A stretch of DNA of 48,737 nucleotides, taken from sequence record PZ452607.1; one strand, given 5' to 3'. A program made the translations under genes and the position numbers. Of the stretch, positions 8,756 to 19,550 are shown piece after piece (position 1 is the stretch's first letter; the number at the start of each line of letters is the position of its first letter). The notes under the pieces were generated by a model, which saw only the letters and a program-made list of their open reading frames with translations, was not told the DNA's origin and did not search any database. This stretch comes from a phage.

Positions 8756-9143
8756 GTTATCAGCGGCGGCGCGAGCCGCTTTTCTATCAAAGTACAGAGA
8801 CTTTCCTCACTACATGGAAAACAGAAATTTCACACCGCCGAAGGATGGCGGGATGTGGCTGAGGTTCAACTACATTGAAGGGGATACGCTTTATCTATCC
8901 ATTGACAGAAAGTGTAAATCTTACATCGCAATCGTTCAGATCGGCGTAGTGTTCCCTCCAGGCTCCGGCGTTGACGAAGCAAGATTGAAAGCAAAAGAGA
9001 TTGCTGATTTTTTCAAAGATGGTAAAATGCTTAACGTTGGTTATATTTTCGAGGGTGCAATCGTGCATCAAATTGTTAAACATGAAAGCGGGTGGATGAT
9101 TCCGGTTCGCTTTACAGTACGAGTAGACACAAAGGAGACTTAA
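8745..9143 (+). CDS. tail terminator-like protein
   Basis: ORF between neck protein and major tail protein. Confidence 0.35.
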   Translation: MHYELSAAARAAFLSKYRDFPHYMENRNFTPPKDGGMWLRFNYIEGDTLYLSIDRKCKSYIAIVQIGVVFPPGSGVDEARLKAKEIADFFKDGKMLNVGYIFEGAIVHQIVKHESGWMIPVRFTVRVDTKET

Positions 9144-9145
9144 TT

Positions 9146-9814
9146 ATGCACTTACCAAATGGCGCACAAATTTTCGTGGAAACCTCTCGCGGGGTAGAGG
9201 TTGAGGCAACCGCTATCACTAACGCAGAAAATCCTGTTGCTACAGTTGCATCTAAGGGTGACTTGGCAAAAGGTGATTACGTTATTGTAACTCAGTCAAC
9301 TTGGGCAAAGATGGTTAGTCGAGTGCTAATTGTTACTGACGCTCAGGAAACAAGTATCACTCTTGCTGGAATTGACACCTCCGATACTCTTGTTTTCCCG
9401 GCTGGCGGCACGATGAGCTTTGCAAAAATTACTGGCTGGACTGAGATCCCTTGCGTACAGGAGATTGGTCAGGACGGCGGCGAGCAGCAGTATTACACTT
9501 ATCAGTGTTTGTCCGACGATAAAGAGCAGCAGATCCCAACGTTTAAATCTGCGGTCTCGCTAACTTACACCTTCGCGCACGAATTTGATAACCCGATCTA
9601 CCCGATTCTGCGCAAGCTGGATTCGTCTGGTCAGGTAACAGCGGTTCGAATGTACGTTCCGAAAGCGAGCGAAATGCGCATGTGGGCTGGCATCTTGTCG
9701 TTTAACGATATCCCATCCACGCAGGTTAACGAAATGGAAACGGTGGAACTCGCCGTATCCCTGAAAGGTGACTTTACTTTCATCTCATCCACTCTGGCAT
9801 CGCCTGGTGCTTAA
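9146..9814 (+). CDS. major tail protein
   Basis: RBS AAGGAGAC before ATG 9146; directly upstream of chaperone/tape measure; followed by hairpin terminator. Confidence 0.55.
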   Translation: MHLPNGAQIFVETSRGVEVEATAITNAENPVATVASKGDLAKGDYVIVTQSTWAKMVSRVLIVTDAQETSITLAGIDTSDTLVFPAGGTMSFAKITGWTEIPCVQEIGQDGGEQQYYTYQCLSDDKEQQIPTFKSAVSLTYTFAHEFDNPIYPILRKLDSSGQVTAVRMYVPKASEMRMWAGILSFNDIPSTQVNEMETVELAVSLKGDFTFISSTLASPGA

Positions 9815-9826
9815 ATACCATCCACA

Positions 9827-9852
9827 GGGGGCTTGCACCCCCTTATTCATTT
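9827..9852 (+). terminator. probable intrinsic terminator after major tail protein
   Basis: GGGGG..CCCCC stem then T-rich tract. Confidence 0.4.
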
Positions 9853-9887
9853 CTGTAAAATCATCTTATCAACTTTATTCGATTAAC

Positions 9888-9907
9888 TTTTAACAAAAAG
9901 TGCTATC
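9888..9907 (-). promoter_or_regulatory. box copy, antisense orientation, late region
   Basis: Reverse complement reads ATAGCACTTTTTGTTAAAAG. Confidence 0.4.
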
Positions 9908-9927
9908 AACCAATCAGGAGAAACATC

Positions 9928-10245
9928 ATGGCTAAATTCAATTTCGTGTTGGGCCAGCTTCCAGACTTCAAACTTCCGGTGACGTTCACCATGCCAAACG
10001 GCGAGGATGCGACTATTATTTTTACAGTACGCCACCTTTCCAGTAAAGAAGTGCAAGATATGTATGCGAAGCAGGGCGAAATGAATGATAGCGATTTCAT
10101 CACTAAGATAGCATCAGGATGGAATCTGGAAGAAGAATTTAACGAAGAGAATACGCGTAAGCTGGTACAGTATTATCCTTCCGCAGCGTACAATCTGACG
10201 GCAACTTACATCAAGGCGCTCGCCGGACACCGCGCAAAAAACTAA
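9928..10245 (+). CDS. tail assembly chaperone (lambda G-like)
   Basis: Small ORF directly upstream of tape measure, ending at slippery heptamer A_AAA_AAC. Confidence 0.6.
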   Translation: MAKFNFVLGQLPDFKLPVTFTMPNGEDATIIFTVRHLSSKEVQDMYAKQGEMNDSDFITKIASGWNLEEEFNEENTRKLVQYYPSAAYNLTATYIKALAGHRAKN

Positions 10246-10562
10246 AAAGGGCGGTTTATCTGTTATATCAGAAACCGCCAACAGAAGAGCAATTAAGATC
10301 GGTTGGCCTCAGTCTTTCTGACTATGAAGACGAGGAACCGGAAACGATAATCGGCGATGCTGAAATGGTGAAGGCGTGGAATGTTTTTACGTCAATGCTC
10401 ACTCAGTGGAGAAGTTCAGGCGCTGGAGCTTATGGTCTTGACTATAATGTTTTGCCTATGTTGTTCAAAATCTATAAAATAGAAGATGAAGAACTGGCAT
10501 TGCAGGACGTTAGGATCATGGAAGCGAAAGCGCTTGAAATGATTGCTAAGCAAAACAACTAA
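9928..10562 (+). CDS. tail assembly chaperone frameshift fusion (lambda G-T-like), produced by -1 shift at 10236-10242
   Basis: -1 frame is open from 10236 through ORF 10365..10562 with no stop; conserved G/GT architecture of tailed phages. Confidence 0.55.
10236..10242 (+). other. -1 programmed frameshift slippery heptamer A_AAA_AAC with downstream stem-loop (10250..10279)
   Basis: Zero-frame codons GCA AAA AAC TAA; stem GGCGGTTT / AAACCGCC begins 7 nt downstream. Confidence 0.55.
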
Positions 10563-10583
10563 GCCGCCGTTTGGCGGTTTTTT
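10563..10583 (+). terminator. intrinsic terminator after chaperone T-domain
   Basis: CCGCC gttt GGCGG then T6. Confidence 0.5.
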
Positions 10584-10602
10584 CGTATATAGGGGGGGTT
10601 AT

Positions 10603-13476
10603 ATGGTTGATAAGGTAGCAGGTCTATCTCTTGACGTTGACGTGTCAACAGTTCAGCGCGCTGTCAAGTCACTGAAAGAGTTTTCAAAGGCCAACGATCA
10701 GGCCGCTGATTCTATGGGTTCTTTAATCAATGAGTCAGAGGTTGCAAAACAGAAGGCCAAAGAACACGCCGAACAACTCAGGCGCCAGAGAAAAGAGTAT
10801 GAGGCCGTGGAGAAGGCAATCGATCCTACAGTATCAAAAATGGAAAGGTTGAAGATTGCATCTCAGCAGCTTGATAAACTCTGGCAGCAGGGAGTCGTTC
10901 CAGATGAGACTTTTTTCCGTTTGGGTGAAATGCTGGATCTGCAAAACGCAAAACTTTCTCGCAGCCGGGCCATGCTGACAGAAGAAGGGCAGGCAGCATT
11001 GCAAGAGGCGAAAGCAAAAGAGCAGGCGGCAGTGCGTAGCAAGGCGTTCATGGATGCCCTGAATGGTCAAGTTAACGCGATCGGTAAGACTCATGCTGAA
11101 TTGATGGAACTGAAAGCGGCTGAGCTTGGTTTATCGAAAGAAGCAGAACCACTAATCGCAAAACTTAAAGATCAAGGCCGGGCTATGAATGCAGCAGGTA
11201 TTAGCGCCGGGGAATACAGACAGGCAATGCGAATGCTTCCTGCGCAGATCACAGATGTCGTAACATCTCTTGCATCCGGTATGCCAGTATGGATGGTTGC
11301 TATCCAACAGGGCGGTCAGATTAAGGATTCGTTCGGCGGGATCGGTAACACGTTTAAAGTGTTGCTGAGTTATATTAATCCGGTCACGGCAGGTGTTGGC
11401 GTTCTTGTTGGTTCGTTAGGTATTCTAGCGAAAGCTGGTTATGACTCTTACAAATCAATAACTGATATTCAGAATGCGCTTATTGAGACTGGAGGTTATG
11501 CAGGTGTTACGGCTGAAGAGCTTGATTCAGTGTCTAAAAAGATCGCGCAGACAAGCAACTCAACCATTGGGAGTATTCGCGAGATTGTAACGGAGTTGGC
11601 GAGTTCTGGTAAGTACACCCGCGAGCAGATCCAGAACATCACTAAGGCTACCGCAGAGTGGTCAGCGTCAACAGGAAAATCAGCAAGTCAAATTATTTCT
11701 GAGTTCGAAAAAATAGCAAGCGATCCGGTAAAAGGACTGAAGAAGTTAAACGAGCAATATAATTTCCTTGAAAAAGGGCAGCTTACCTATATCGATACAT
11801 TAAGCCGGACGAAAGGAGAAACTGAGGCTGTATCAGAGGCTACAAAACTATTCGCAGACGTAATGGAAAAGCGAATGAAGTCGATCGCGGATAACGCTAC
11901 TCCTCTGGAAAAGATGTGGAGCGATATTAAACAATGGGCTTCGGACGCGTGGGGATGGGTTGGTGATCATACACTCGGGGCACTAAACCTGATTATCGAC
12001 GTTGTTCAGGGTACAGTGATTCAGGTTAAAATGATTCTTGCGAAGGGTGATGAATACATCTCAAACTTTATCGCCTCAGCCATAAAGGCAACTCAGTCAC
12101 TGCCTGGAATGAGTGACTTCGGCGCTGATGTACTGAAGGAGCAGGAGAATATTGTAAAAAGTTCTCGCGACAACTACGATCAGTTAGCTTCAGATCTTGA
12201 CGCTATTAACGCTCGTGTAGAAAAAAGCGAGATGGGATACATTGAAGCAATGAGGCAGCGCCGCACCCTTGAAAAGCAGTACAGTGAGGAAACTAAGGAG
12301 GCAATAAGGAAAGAAGCAGAAGAGATCGAGAAGCGAAACCGAGAACGAAATAAGCAGTCGAAAATTGTACGATCACCGACAGAGCAATTCGACAAGGAGT
12401 TAATTTCACTCAGGGCTCAACTTAAGGTATTGCAGGAGCATAAGGAGATCGGTCAAAAACTATCAGCACAGAGAAAGGCGCTGTTTACAACTGAGGCTAC
12501 GATCGCTGTTCTTCGCGAAGCTAGTTCTAAGCGCCAGTTGTCTGCGGAAGAAAAAGCGTTGCTGGCAAGTCAGGAGAGAGTTATTGAGCTTGCGAAACAG
12601 AAGGCCGAGATTGGCGATCAGATTGTTAAGCAACAGCAGTTGAATGATCTTACCGATAAATCTCTGAAGTTTGTCAATGAGATGACGGCGGCGACGGAAC
12701 AGCTTAACGCGTCACGCGGTCTTAGTACTCGCGACATGGAACGACAAGCTGAACTAGCTAAAATCACCACTGATTACATCAACTCCGGCGGCAGCGAAGG
12801 AGACGAGAAACTTCAGAACATGATTAAGGCGCAAAATGATTACTACGCTGCGGAAGATGCCAAGCGAGCTGACTGGTTGGCAGGTGCTGAAAGTGCTTTT
12901 GCTGATTACGGTGATGCAGCAATGGATATGTACGGCAATGTTAACGAGATCGCGTCAAGTGCCCTTAACGGAATGTCAGATATGATGGTTCAATTTCTGA
13001 CCACAGGAAAAGCGAACTTTGAGGACTTTGCGAAAAATATCATCGGCATGATTATAAAGATGATTGCTCAGATGGTAATCTTCAATACGATCTCAGGCAT
13101 GATGGGCGGTAAGACGTGGAGCTTTGCTGGAGGGGCGTCGTCTGGTGCTTCTGCGGCATCACAGGCAACCCCTACACCTGCTGCTTCTGTTTTTAGATCT
13201 GTATCTTCCGGCGGGGCCGCTGTATCACTTGCTGCCGCAGCGGGTAGCGTGGCAACCTCTGGATTCAACGCATCAAACTCGGCGCCAAAGGTGGTAAACC
13301 ATTCAGGAGGTGGAACGGTCGTTGACGTTAGCGGAATGGAGGTGAAAGTTGACAACGGTTCAGATCCGAGGGGGATTTCTCAGGGCGTGGAAATGATGTT
13401 CAAAAAAATGATTCGTGAGTCTTGTTCGCAGGGCGGCGAGGTTTATAATTACATTCAGGAAAAAACAGGAGGCTAA
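10603..13476 (+). CDS. tail tape measure protein
   Basis: 957 aa, coiled-coil-rich, Gly/Ala/Ser-rich C-terminal segment; follows G/GT chaperone; RBS AGGGGGGG. Confidence 0.8.
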
Positions 13477-16098: not shown

Positions 16099-19000
16099 AT
16101 GATTCAAAAAGTGATAAGCGGATCTAAAGGTGGGTCACAGAAGCCTCATAACCCAGTTGAGATGGAGGACAATCTAATCTCAATCAACAAAATCAAGATC
16201 CTGTTAGCTGTATCTGATGGTGAAATTGACGAAACATTCAGCCTGAAGCAGTTGATGTTTAACTCAGTCCCGGTGCAAAACGAGGATGGCTCATTTAACT
16301 TCGAGGGAGTAAAGGCAGAGTTCAGACCGGGGACGCAGACTCAGGAATATATCAAGGGAATGGAAGATAGCTCTAGTGAGGTAACTGTAAATCGTGAGGT
16401 TACTACCGATAACCCATACACAATCTCAGTAACCAACAAAACGCTGTCGGCAATCCGTATCAAAATGTTCATGCCTCGCGGCGTACGAATTGAAAGTAAC
16501 GGTGATAAAAATGGCGTAAGAGTTGAGTATGAGGTGCAACAAGCTGTTGATGGCGGCTCGTTTGAGACGGTGCTCACCGATGTAATCGAAGGCAAAACAA
16601 TGTCAGGTTACGATCGAAGCAGACGTGTAAACCTACCTAACTTCAACAATCAGGTGATATTCAGAGTGGTTCGGAAAACTCCAGACTCTAACGACTCGAA
16701 CGTTGTTGACGCGATTCAGGTAAAGAGCTATGCCGAGGTGATTGATGCCAAATTCCGTTATCCGCTGACTGGTCTTCTTTTTGTCGAGTTTGATTCGAAG
16801 ATGTTCCCAAACCAGTTACCTACGATCTCAATTCGTAAGCGCTGGAAGATTGTAAACGTTCCGTCAAACTATGATCCAGAATCACGAACTTATAACGGAA
16901 ATTGGGATGGAACTTTTAAGAAGGCATGGACGAATAATCCGGCCTGGGTGCTTTATGACCTGATGATTAATCAGCGTTATGGCTTGGATCAGAAAGAGCT
17001 TGGTATCGCTGTAGATAAATGGGCGCTCTACGAGGCTGCGCAATATTGCGATCAGATGGTTCCTGATGGGAAGGGCGGGACGGAACCTCGATACCTTTGC
17101 GACGTGATAATCCAGTCTCAGACTGACGCTTACAAGGTTATCCGAGATATTTGCTCAATCTTTCGTGGTATGAGCTTTTGGAATGGTGAGAGCATTTCGG
17201 TAATCATCGACAGGCCGCGTGAACCTGCGTACATCTTCACTAACGACAACGTTGTTAATGGTGACTTCTCCTACACGTTCGCAAGCGAAAAGAGCATGTA
17301 CACGACGTGTAATGTGATGTTTGATGATGAACAAAACATGTATCAGCAGGACGTTGAGCCAGTATTCGATCGTGAGGCTACTCTACGGTTTGGGAACAAC
17401 GTTACGAGCATTACAGCGATCGGTTGCACACGTCGAAGCGAGGCCAACCGACGCGGGAGATGGATTCTGAAAACTAACCTCCGCAGCACTACGGTAAACT
17501 TCGCTACCGGGCTTGAGGGCATGATCCCAACAATCGGAGATGTTGTGGCAATAGCTGATAACTTCTGGTCAAGTAACTTGACAATGAACCTGTCAGGGCG
17601 TTTGCTCGAAGTGTCTGGAAGTCAGATTTTCTTGCCGTTCCGGGTGGATGCACGCGCTGGTGACTTTATTATCGTAAATAAGCCAGATGGCAAGCCTGTG
17701 AAGCGCACAATCTCAAGTGTTAGTGCGGATGGTAAGACTATAGAGGTTAACATTGGCTTTGGCTTTCCTGTGAAGCCTAACACGGTATTCGCTATCGACC
17801 GCACCGACATTGCGTTACAGCAGTACGTCGTGACAAAAATCGATAAGGGCGATGATGATGAGGAATTTACCTACAAAATAACGGCGGTGGAGTACGATCC
17901 TAACAAGTATGATGAGATTGATTACGGAGTTAACATCGACGACCGACCGACGAGCATCGTTGAACCAGATCAGATCCCTAGACCGAAAAATGTGCAAGTA
18001 TCCTCAGAGTCGAGAATCGTCCAGGGGATGAGCGTAGAAACGATGATTGTTAGCTGGGATAAAGTTCCGTACGCTGTTTTCTATGACGTCCAGTGGCGAA
18101 AGGATAACGGTAACTGGCAAAATGTACCGCAGACAGCAAACAAAGAGGTATACGTTGAAGGTATTTACGCTGGCAACTATCAGGTTCGCGTTCGCTCAGT
18201 CGCTGGTTCGGGCACGACTTCAGGCTGGTCAAATATCGTCGCGGCAACGTTGACGGGTAAACAGGGTGAACCGGGCCGAACGATTAACCTCACAGCTACG
18301 GATGATGTTGTTTTTGGTATCCGTACAAAATGGGGGTTCTCTGATGGTTCTGGAGATACAGCCTATACAGAGTTGCAACAGTCACCGGATGGAACAGTGG
18401 ATAACGCAAGTTTGCTTTCTTTGATTCCGTATCCGCAGCATGAGTATTATCACTCACCAATGCCTGGAGGGAATATTGTTTGGTATCGGGTAAGGACGGT
18501 TGACAGGATCGGTAACGTGTCTCAGTGGACTGATTTTGTCAGAGGTATGGCATCAACAAACGTTGACGATATCATTGGGGAGATTTCTGTTGATATCGAA
18601 AACTCACCTGGTTACGAGTGGCTTGTTGATAACGCAACAGACAACGCGGCGCAGAACTCAGCTAACGCAGAGGCAGCAATAGAAAACGCGCTCGCCAATG
18701 ACAAAGACGCGATCTACATGAAGAAGGAGAACGGAAAACGAAAAGCTGAGTACACGAAATCACTGAAACTTATTGCTGATGAGACGCAGGCACGAGTGAC
18801 GGCGATCGAGCAATTGAAGGCAAGTTTTGGCGATCAGATTAGCGCTAGCAACAGCGAGCTGCGTGAGGTTATCGCAACCGAGACTGAAGCACTATCGCGT
18901 GAGATTGACCAGCTTAAGGCTCAGATTGGTGACGATATTCAGGCAAGTCTGACTGATATTCGGGAGGCTATCGCGAACGAGACTGAGGCTAGAACGCAAG

Positions 19001-19518
19001 CTGACTTAACACTTAGCGCGCGGCTTGGAAATAACGAGGCGGCACTTGCTCAAAAACTAGACTCGTGGAGTAACGCGGATTCTACTGGTGCAATGTACGG
19101 TGTCAAGTTGGGTCTGAAATACAACGGCCAGGAATACAGTGCAGGCATGGCTATGTCTCTAGTTGGTTCCGGAGCTGCGGTTAAGGCGCAGATTTTGTTT
19201 GAGGCGTCACGATTTGCCATCATGACTGGAATGAATGGTCAGACTCAGTACCCCTTCGTTGTTGAGAATGGTCAGGTTATTTTAAGTAGCGCGATTATCA
19301 AGAACGGATTCATCACCAACGCAATGATTGGAAACTTCATCCAGTCGAATAACTATGTATTTAACAAGTCCGGATGGAGGCTTGACAAGGGTGGAACATT
19401 CGAAAATTACGGAAGTGACGGTGAGGGTGCAATGAAGCAAACTAATACCACAATATCTGTTAGGGATGCGAGTGGTCGCCTGAGGGTTCAGATTGGCAGG
19501 TTGACTGGCTCATGGTAA
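16099..19518 (+). CDS. tail tip host-specificity protein (lambda J-like central fibre)
   Basis: 1139-aa ORF after K/I homologues with own promoter; coiled segment near C-terminus. Confidence 0.8.
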   Translation: MIQKVISGSKGGSQKPHNPVEMEDNLISINKIKILLAVSDGEIDETFSLKQLMFNSVPVQNEDGSFNFEGVKAEFRPGTQTQEYIKGMEDSSSEVTVNREVTTDNPYTISVTNKTLSAIRIKMFMPRGVRIESNGDKNGVRVEYEVQQAVDGGSFETVLTDVIEGKTMSGYDRSRRVNLPNFNNQVIFRVVRKTPDSNDSNVVDAIQVKSYAEVIDAKFRYPLTGLLFVEFDSKMFPNQLPTISIRKRWKIVNVPSNYDPESRTYNGNWDGTFKKAWTNNPAWVLYDLMINQRYGLDQKELGIAVDKWALYEAAQYCDQMVPDGKGGTEPRYLCDVIIQSQTDAYKVIRDICSIFRGMSFWNGESISVIIDRPREPAYIFTNDNVVNGDFSYTFASEKSMYTTCNVMFDDEQNMYQQDVEPVFDREATLRFGNNVTSITAIGCTRRSEANRRGRWILKTNLRSTTVNFATGLEGMIPTIGDVVAIADNFWSSNLTMNLSGRLLEVSGSQIFLPFRVDARAGDFIIVNKPDGKPVKRTISSVSADGKTIEVNIGFGFPVKPNTVFAIDRTDIALQQYVVTKIDKGDDDEEFTYKITAVEYDPNKYDEIDYGVNIDDRPTSIVEPDQIPRPKNVQVSSESRIVQGMSVETMIVSWDKVPYAVFYDVQWRKDNGNWQNVPQTANKEVYVEGIYAGNYQVRVRSVAGSGTTSGWSNIVAATLTGKQGEPGRTINLTATDDVVFGIRTKWGFSDGSGDTAYTELQQSPDGTVDNASLLSLIPYPQHEYYHSPMPGGNIVWYRVRTVDRIGNVSQWTDFVRGMASTNVDDIIGEISVDIENSPGYEWLVDNATDNAAQNSANAEAAIENALANDKDAIYMKKENGKRKAEYTKSLKLIADETQARVTAIEQLKASFGDQISASNSELREVIATETEALSREIDQLKAQIGDDIQASLTDIREAIANETEARTQADLTLSARLGNNEAALAQKLDSWSNADSTGAMYGVKLGLKYNGQEYSAGMAMSLVGSGAAVKAQILFEASRFAIMTGMNGQTQYPFVVENGQVILSSAIIKNGFITNAMIGNFIQSNNYVFNKSGWRLDKGGTFENYGSDGEGAMKQTNTTISVRDASGRLRVQIGRLTGSW

Positions 19519-19524
19519 TATCAA

Positions 19525-19550
19525 GGGCATCGAGAGATGCCCTTTTCTTT
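19525..19550 (+). terminator. intrinsic terminator after J-like gene
   Basis: GGGCATC gaga GATGCCC then T-rich tract. Confidence 0.55.

Follow-up and report, generated by a model that had tools for sequence, protein, structure and literature searches.

In coliphage T1, two overlapping reading frames, G and T, lie between the genes for the tail tube and the tape measure protein, all on the + strand of the 48,737-nt stretch of DNA analysed here (the window). By megablast of positions 9000..11000 the window is T1 itself, with 100% identity to AY216660.1, NC_005833.1 and MK213796.1, and window coordinates are obtained by subtracting 8944 from those of the T1 records. The major tail (tube) protein gene, upstream of G, spans 9146..9814 (Pfam Phage_tail_3, E=1.2e-70; annotated in AY216660.1 and NC_005833.1). 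The interval between it and G holds a terminator-like hairpin at 9826..9852 (terminator scan, stem 9826..9843), which coincides with the rho-independent terminator annotated at 18770..18796 in NC_005833.1. A Shine-Dalgarno sequence, AGGAG (9916..9920), common to G and the fusion GT and annotated as the ribosome binding site (RBS) of both CPTT1_038 and CPTT1_039, precedes G (9928..10245), which by standard decoding yields a short tail assembly (tape measure) chaperone of 105 aa. The T segment (10242..10562; 106 codons plus stop) is read only in the -1 frame after a shift, and GT, made up of G codons 1-104/105 and the T segment, has 211 aa. Just 3' of the T stop is a terminator-like hairpin with a T6 run (10561..10587, terminator scan), matched by a rho-independent terminator annotated at record coordinates 19508..19527, and beyond it lies the tape measure protein gene (10603..13476; annotated; Pfam TMP_2, E=2.2e-74, and Tape_meas_lam_C, E=8e-26).

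Protein family searches agree with this layout. G, which belongs to PHROG 569, matches Pfam Phage_TAC_4 (PF08748) along residues 1-105 and the full profile (positions 1-124 of 124), with E=1.4e-36 and a score of 125.9 bits where the cut-off is 21.1. The T extension matches DUF1799 (PF08809) at residues 130-206 of the fusion (E=1.3e-11, 45.0 bits against a cut-off of 26), and both matches pass the gathering threshold. PHROG 17368, a 213-position profile, aligns end to end with the conceptual fusion (residues 1-210 of 211), and PHROG 680 covers the T part from 9 residues past the junction, well upstream of the first ATG. A sequence search of the PDB with the GT fusion returned only spurious proteasome chains (E about 0.02), so a solved relative of GT is not detectable by sequence. 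The Pfam gene order is tail tube protein, then Phage_TAC_4/DUF1799, then tape measure protein. Long-tailed phages reportedly share a conserved tail assembly chaperone frameshift of the G/GT class, in which G is said to be in excess over GT, both proteins to be needed for tail assembly, and both to be absent from virions. Features that define this class are found in T1: Pfam places two ORFs between the tube and tape measure genes, and the second, read in another frame, overlaps the first and has neither a start codon nor an RBS of its own at its 5' end.

The existing records describe the locus in two ways. The curated re-annotation AY216660.1 has two CDS with a common RBS and ATG: CPTT1_038, "tape measure chaperone" (18872..19189, window 9928..10245, + strand), and CPTT1_039, a two-piece joined CDS called "tape measure chaperone, frameshift product" (18872..19506, window 9928..10562). 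An exact-sequence look-up identifies AAP50000.2, the product of the latter, with the 211-aa fusion, and AAP49960.1 is the 105-aa G product. RefSeq NC_005833 and two further T1 records give G and T as two separate ORFs (ST40 and ST39 in NC_005833). The independent T1 record MK213796 shows no difference across 9928..10562, and isolate MN153797 has two substitutions there (10028 and 10284) and zero indels. The T1 G/GT frameshift is already known, being annotated in AY216660.1, and the finding is for that reason an ordinary one. A conserved chaperone frameshift of T1-like phages was noted in the Stevie paper (PMC4319613), and the paper on the CPT annotation pipeline, whose comparison set includes T1, lists frameshifted tape measure chaperones as a feature without specific assignment by RASTtk (PMC7660901).

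The slip site and its conservation

G codons start at positions that leave a remainder of 1 on division by 3, and the gene ends GCA AAA AAC TAA, exactly as the initial annotation had read it. That annotation had also named A_AAA_AAC at 10236..10242 as a canonical slippery heptamer, correctly, and we confirm that it stands in the X_XXY_YYZ phase of the 0 frame; we take it as the proposed site of a -1 shift. The 0-frame stop TAA (10243..10245) directly adjoins the heptamer and is a possible pausing element. The -1 frame, claimed to be open from the heptamer through an ORF at 10365..10562, is indeed open, and over the longer span 10161..10562: counted as positions with remainder 0, it runs to a stop at 10560..10562, and the earliest ATG, GTG or TTG in it is at 10365.

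Within the 85-nt overlap of G and T there is no in-phase heptamer besides A_AAA_AAC. The window as a whole has 69 in-phase X_XXY_YYZ heptamers (both strands, open frames of at least 80 codons), and only the one at 10236..10242 abuts its own 0-frame stop; it is also one of just four after which the -1 frame stays open for more than 100 codons (median 8). The arrangement of the slip site is thus above the chance level. As regards Shine-Dalgarno-like sequence, the 20 nt upstream of the T1 heptamer contain GGA only; in dnaX, an upstream element of this kind stimulates frameshifting. An Rfam scan of 9700..10800 at E<=1 found no known frameshift-element family, and its one sub-threshold chance match was to Mu-gpT-DE on the minus strand (17.4 bits against a gathering score of 49).

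The two-frame arrangement is widespread among phages. A tblastn search with the fusion as query matched 1155 phage records, in 1102 of which one locus covered at least 80% of the fusion, and among the matches listed this coverage came nearly always as two pieces. We examined 21 annotated loci, drawn from the Drexlerviridae subfamilies, Dhillonvirus and unclassified Klebsiella and Ralstonia phages, and a further 80 loci retrieved from IMG/VR by an alignment of the G protein; scanning for related loci with a single G protein gave close relatives only, and the alignment query reached down to about 35% identity. A_AAA_AAC with an adjoining stop is present in 71 of 93 distinct related loci (TAA in 64, TGA in 7), among them GC-rich metagenome contigs in which G has about 35% identity with T1 G and the flanks otherwise do not align. 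After this cassette the -1 frame stays open for 100-107 codons and the +1 frame is soon closed. The remaining intact loci read A_AAA_GTY TAA (Webervirus), A_AAG_GTC TAA (Rogunavirus), A_AAG_CCT TAA (PMBT64-like phages) or, in an intact Ralstonia phage, G_GGA_AAC TGA; in the tetramer-type variants the stop follows one codon after A_AAR-NNN. Left out of the alignment, codon-phase and hairpin analyses were L067, L104, L105, L107/L018 (HCF1), L111/L031 (Salmonella phage 36), L116 and L118. Apart from L116, whose intact G has an in-phase A_AAA_AAC and a stop one codon later, these have broken G frames and the appearance of low-quality sequence.

Conservation of the slip site is very strong, down to its synonymous positions. 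R102 and K104 are the same in every aligned G, the codon preceding K104 always ends in A, and the three synonymous sites of the heptamer do not vary (NNA, AAA, AAC), AAT never being used for Asn. This pattern points to an in-phase A_AAR, a classic tRNA-Lys slip site, as the core of the signal, and A_AAR appears to be what the intact loci lacking the heptamer have kept, although the types listed above also include G_GGA_AAC. The arrangement and slip site are kept in relatives despite divergence, another defining feature of the G/GT class. Two Dhillonvirus phages, HK578 and Maverick, are particularly informative: a -1-frame TGA abuts the 5' side of their heptamer (CGT GAA AAA AAC TAA), which reduces the overlap to 10 nt, and a shift is therefore possible nowhere else in these phages. 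Taken as comparative evidence, these data strongly support a -1 frameshift at A_AAA_AAC. The initial proposal of G and G-T products encoded upstream of the tape measure gene likewise fits about 100 related loci and the T1 annotation in gene order, families, slip site and -1 continuation.

The hairpin downstream of the slip site

A bulged hairpin at 10250..10279 (+ strand), 7 nt 3' of the heptamer, is a candidate frameshift stimulator. The initial annotation had drawn it as a stem-loop of 8 bp belonging to the signal. Its arms, GGCGGTTT (10250..10257) and AAACCGCC (10272..10279), are, as proposed, perfectly reverse-complementary and separated from the heptamer by 7 nt; the minimum-energy fold (ViennaRNA) differs slightly from that stem and is stronger, with 7 bp (10250-56/10273-79), a 2-nt UA bulge, 4 bp (10259-62/10269-72) and a hexaloop. 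As a part of the frameshift signal, the stem-loop fared less clearly than its geometry: in T1 it exists and stands out from its surroundings, but its presence in relatives is patchy and its covariation weak. We also considered the hairpin as a terminator and rejected this, as the terminator scan calls it on neither strand and no U-run lies 3' of it on the + strand.

It is possible that the frameshift is real and the hairpin has no role in it, being a by-product of the GC-rich codons for RAVY...KPP, with the heptamer and stop sufficing on their own; we give this reading somewhat less than an even chance. The hairpin arms do encode a conserved motif, R-A-V ... K-P-P, and frameshifting at the lambda G-T junction reportedly needs no stimulatory structure. 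Against a by-product stands the strength of the fold, at -15.9 kcal/mol compared with -5.2 +/- 2.0 for dinucleotide shuffles (z = -5.46; none of 200 as good), together with its position exactly 7 nt from the heptamer. It ranks in the top 0.4% of + strand 40-nt windows, and no more than 26 distinct sites in 48.7 kb fold equally well.

The distribution of the structure in relatives bears on both sides. Of 55 distinct sequences, 31 stand out locally by the 40-nt fold 3' of the slip site (z < -2), namely all Tunavirus, most Tempevirinae, Dhillonvirus and PMBT64-like phages. An unusual structure is absent (z > -1) from 21 of the 55, most of which still carry A_AAA_AAC, and these relatives favour a hairpin without a role. 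In Dhillonvirus an unrelated GC-rich sequence, GGCGGCG/CGCCGCC, forms a hairpin of -17.1 kcal/mol with the same 7-nt spacer, which counts against the by-product reading. Covariation is near the control level and so favours the by-product reading: scored on the 55-sequence alignment, the T1 structure pairs 70% of cells versus 66% with shuffled partners and 36-48% with slid partners, and its covariation score of 0.146 compares with 0.102 when partners are shuffled and 0.141 when they are slid by -1. No two-sided compensatory changes were seen among the homologous Tunavirinae/Tempevirinae hairpins aligned, the variant pairs being one-sided.

Synonymous variation again cuts both ways. Synonymous entropy is 1.29 bits at the stem codon GCG, 1.20 at GTT and 0.66 at CCG, where the background has a mean of 1.64 and its 5th percentile lies at 0.93; the Pro and Thr codons just beyond the stem are normal (1.80 and 1.76). 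Fourfold-degenerate sites needed for pairing thus vary less than background, a modest suppression that counts against the by-product reading. In two relatives, L053 and L084, the peptide RAVYLFYQKPP is encoded as well, but synonymous codon choices disrupt the pairing. The same peptide can thus be written without the stem, which is not indispensable, and these relatives count for the by-product reading. A stimulator, on the other hand, would matter most with a weak heptamer (PMC4066793). Weighing these points, we lean slightly towards the hairpin being a plausible lineage-specific enhancer of the frameshift, and its distribution indicates that it is not a universal part of the signal. Because it is missing from about 40% of the relatives that keep the slip site, and because compensatory covariation is almost absent, its role as a stimulator is one that we infer.

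Coding evidence in the segment without a start codon

The stretch 10242..10364, which precedes any start codon in the -1 frame, has the signature of coding sequence. In a protein-guided codon alignment of 86 distinct sequences, its entropies at -1-frame codon positions 1/2/3 are 0.77/0.66/1.44 bits, and the controls are alike, with 0.85/0.57/1.33 for the rest of T and 0.86/0.65/1.52 for G in its own frame; the profile is indistinguishable from both. Amino-acid homology (L-K/R-R-A-V-Y-L..., in T1 LKRAVYL) begins with the first -1 codon. These observations bear directly on the view that G and T are separate genes, with T translated independently from ATG 10365 or ATG 10395. RefSeq and several other records do annotate a separate downstream ORF, and many relatives, if not all, have a Met at the 10365 position. 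Yet the Met is missing in several relatives, the annotated starts of "T" vary between records, the slip site is kept at synonymous positions, and the 41 start-less codons 5' of 10365 carry the -1 coding signature and encode protein conserved from the junction onwards. In the T1 sequence, moreover, no Shine-Dalgarno lies upstream of either ATG. The coding signature of the start-less segment and the lack of a Shine-Dalgarno together rule out T as an independent gene for practical purposes, and we regard this reading as very improbable.

Equally improbable, in our judgment, is transcriptional slippage, in which RNA polymerase would add one A in the A6 run at 10236..10241, the mRNA with one extra A giving the same ...AKK-LKR... 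protein with no ribosomal frameshifting: a homopolymeric A6 is indeed present at the site, but it is below the length of runs known for productive slippage in bacteria (the A/T runs used by IS elements and Thermus dnaX have some 9 or more bases). The run also keeps its codon phase strictly, which matters to ribosomes and not to RNA polymerase, and sister lineages have the same two frames with A3-A4 runs only (A_AAG_GTC, A_AAA_GTY, A_AAG_CCT, G_GGA_AAC), for which tRNA re-pairing is the only workable route.

Discussion

We consider it very probable that T1 G and T encode two tail assembly chaperones by means of programmed -1 ribosomal frameshifting. Most ribosomes would read G to the TAA at 10243 and release the 105-aa G protein, while a minority would slip back by one base on A_AAA_AAC (10236..10242) and go on in the -1 frame to 10562, producing the 211-aa G-T fusion. 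During the slip, tRNA-Lys would re-pair from AAA to AAA, and the A-site tRNA-Asn may or may not slip from AAC to AAA. Tandem slippage of both tRNAs predicts ...AKN-LKR at the junction; the deposited AAP50000.2 reads ...AKK-LKR. We picture the slip as a low-level event centred on tRNA-Lys at A_AAA, probably aided by the slowly decoded adjoining stop and, in the T1 lineage, perhaps further aided by the hairpin where the mRNA enters the ribosome. If T1 works as lambda does with gpG and gpGT, the G part that both products share would form a coat on the tape measure protein, the less abundant T part would bring in the tail tube protein, and the G:GT ratio would be set by how often ribosomes slip.

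Sharma et al. 2014 (PMC4066793) show that in E. coli ribosomes slip on A_AAA_AAC with low efficiency, because A-site re-pairing from AAC to AAA is non-cognate. IS1-type elements, which need little fusion protein, use it regardless (PMC4066793). The weakness of the heptamer counts against programmed frameshifting as the best explanation, as do the patchy hairpin with its weak covariation and the lack of detectable similarity between T1 GT and lambda GT. In the literature searched, we found zero experimental demonstrations of the frameshift in T1 or another member of the Drexlerviridae, whether from proteins, peptides or reporters.

We speculate, tentatively and with more doubt than confidence, that what never varies in the T1-family signal may be one slip of tRNA-Lys, on an in-phase A_AAR that lies two codons ahead of the G stop, and that the heptamer and the 3' hairpin may be lineage-specific tuning. 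The hairpin with its 7-nt spacer would then have two independent origins, one in Tunavirinae/Tempevirinae and one in Dhillonvirus, and Rogunavirinae and Webervirus would have lost it or never had it. If this were true, these phages would offer a natural series for measuring how motif, adjoining stop and hairpin trade off while holding a fixed G:GT ratio. Such a comparative series (heptamer to tetramer, hairpin to none, with the stop adjoining) could serve as a model of how frameshift efficiency is tuned, an incremental and unsurprising use.

The interest of the T1 locus is mainly one of annotation. The locus is properly described as a single chaperone gene extended by a -1 frameshift, and NC_005833 and most Drexlerviridae records show two unrelated small ORFs, often with wrong labels such as "tail length tape measure protein". 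To what is known our analysis makes minor additions: the hairpin fold and its statistics, the patchy distribution of the hairpin, the shared A_AAR core, and the Dhillonvirus case that pins the shift to the heptamer. Beyond this, T1 is one more instance of the near-universal G/GT strategy, by which two tail assembly chaperones are made in a fixed ratio.

The closest relatives of the T1 system are direct homologues in T1-like phages of the Drexlerviridae (TLS TfmS, Stevie, Skenny) and in Dhillonvirus HK578 (gp15/gp16), which belong to the same Pfam and PHROG families. Most of these homologues share the A_AAA_AAC-stop cassette of T1; unlike T1, some genera have a tetramer-type site (A_AAA_GTY, A_AAG_GTC or A_AAG_CCT), many homologues are without its hairpin, and database records mostly show two separate ORFs.

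Lambda, whose locus we examined for comparison, has a gpG/gpGT -1 frameshift that is reportedly proven by experiment, whereas that of T1 is supported here by sequence. In both phages the gene pair is placed between the genes for the tail tube and the tape measure protein, a short product of the 0 frame and a longer one fused in the -1 frame have a common N-terminus, and the slip site, at which a low-level shift is expected, is near the 3' end of G and involves tRNA-Lys. They differ in the heptamer (A_AAA_AAC in T1, G_GGA_AAG in lambda), in the 0-frame stop, which abuts the heptamer in T1 and comes 5 codons later in lambda, and in the strong hairpin of T1 7 nt 3' of the heptamer. The T1 GT combines Phage_TAC_4 with DUF1799, that of lambda Phage_TAC_2 (PF06894) with Phage_tail_T (PF06223), and there is no detectable sequence similarity between the two fusions (BLASTP E=0.92). 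T1 GT is therefore a functional analogue or distant relative that stands outside lambda's sequence families, and the chaperone mechanism is transferred to it by analogy. Lambda needs G and GT in a ratio of about 30:1, with gpG as the coat of the tape measure protein and the T domain as the part that binds the tube protein (PMC5009743).

A parallel to the slip site itself comes from a different kind of element, insA-insB' of IS1, which uses the same A_AAA_AAC in the same host for a low-efficiency shift that yields a minority fusion protein (PMC4066793). There the likeness ends: IS1 is an insertion sequence, its product is a transposase, and protein and context are unrelated to those of T1. IS1 is without an established stimulator (PMC4066793), whereas T1 has a candidate one in its hairpin.

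Deposited records of the G and GT products

The G-T fusion product (GT) of coliphage T1 is deposited in GenBank as the frameshift product AAP50000.2 (window 9928..10562), whose residue 105 is Lys. This residue implies that the deposited model sets the slip behind the first AAA and not behind AAC. The alternative version of GT, with Asn at residue 105, was absent from a collection of 15 billion proteins. In RefSeq, both small chaperone ORFs carry the label 'tail length tape measure protein' in the T1 record NC_005833.1 and in many Drexlerviridae records (for example those of the related G/T loci L019, L021 and L028), and the start assigned to the T ORF differs among these records. It looks as if the G/GT pair is systematically mis-annotated in NC_005833.1 and in many RefSeq Drexlerviridae records.

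Sequence features flanking the chaperone genes

Two terminator-like hairpins lie on the plus strand, one on each side of the G/GT pair: the first (9826..9852) is 3' of the tail tube gene, and the second (10561..10587, with a stem at 10561..10580 followed by T6) falls in the interval from the stop codon of T to the start of the tape measure gene. Because T1 records annotate both as rho-independent terminators, expression of the tape measure gene would require either its own promoter or terminator read-through. The Shine-Dalgarno region of that gene (ATG at 10603) is a G7 homopolymer at 10592..10598, which is G8 in T1 isolate MN153797, the sole length difference between that isolate and the window within 9000..11000. 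On the minus strand, 10619..10669 scores 17.4 bits with the Rfam family Mu-gpT-DE (E=0.46), short of the gathering score of 49, and this sub-threshold match is most likely due to chance.

Slip sites in related phages

In Citrobacter phage HCF1 (L018, NC_054897.1, 690..720), two single-base deletions relative to phSE-5 lie close to the end of G, one of them in the A-run (A5 versus A6). They place G and T in one frame with an in-frame TAA between them, and alter the G C-terminus to ...KARQVSA*. These deletions are either a sequencing error or a natural variant, and the latter would need stop-codon read-through.

In sister lineages, the A_AAA_AAC heptamer of T1 is replaced by A_AAA_GTY, A_AAG_GTC or A_AAG_CCT. 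The stop lies one codon past AAR-NNN in every case, and these sites permit only a single tRNA-Lys slip. A Ralstonia phage has, in place of the heptamer, a lambda-like G_GGA_AAC TGA. The loci concerned, with the Ralstonia phage included, are L028-L030 and L097-L102 in Webervirus, L025 and L079-L083 in Rogunavirus, L034, L035 and, at 709, L036.
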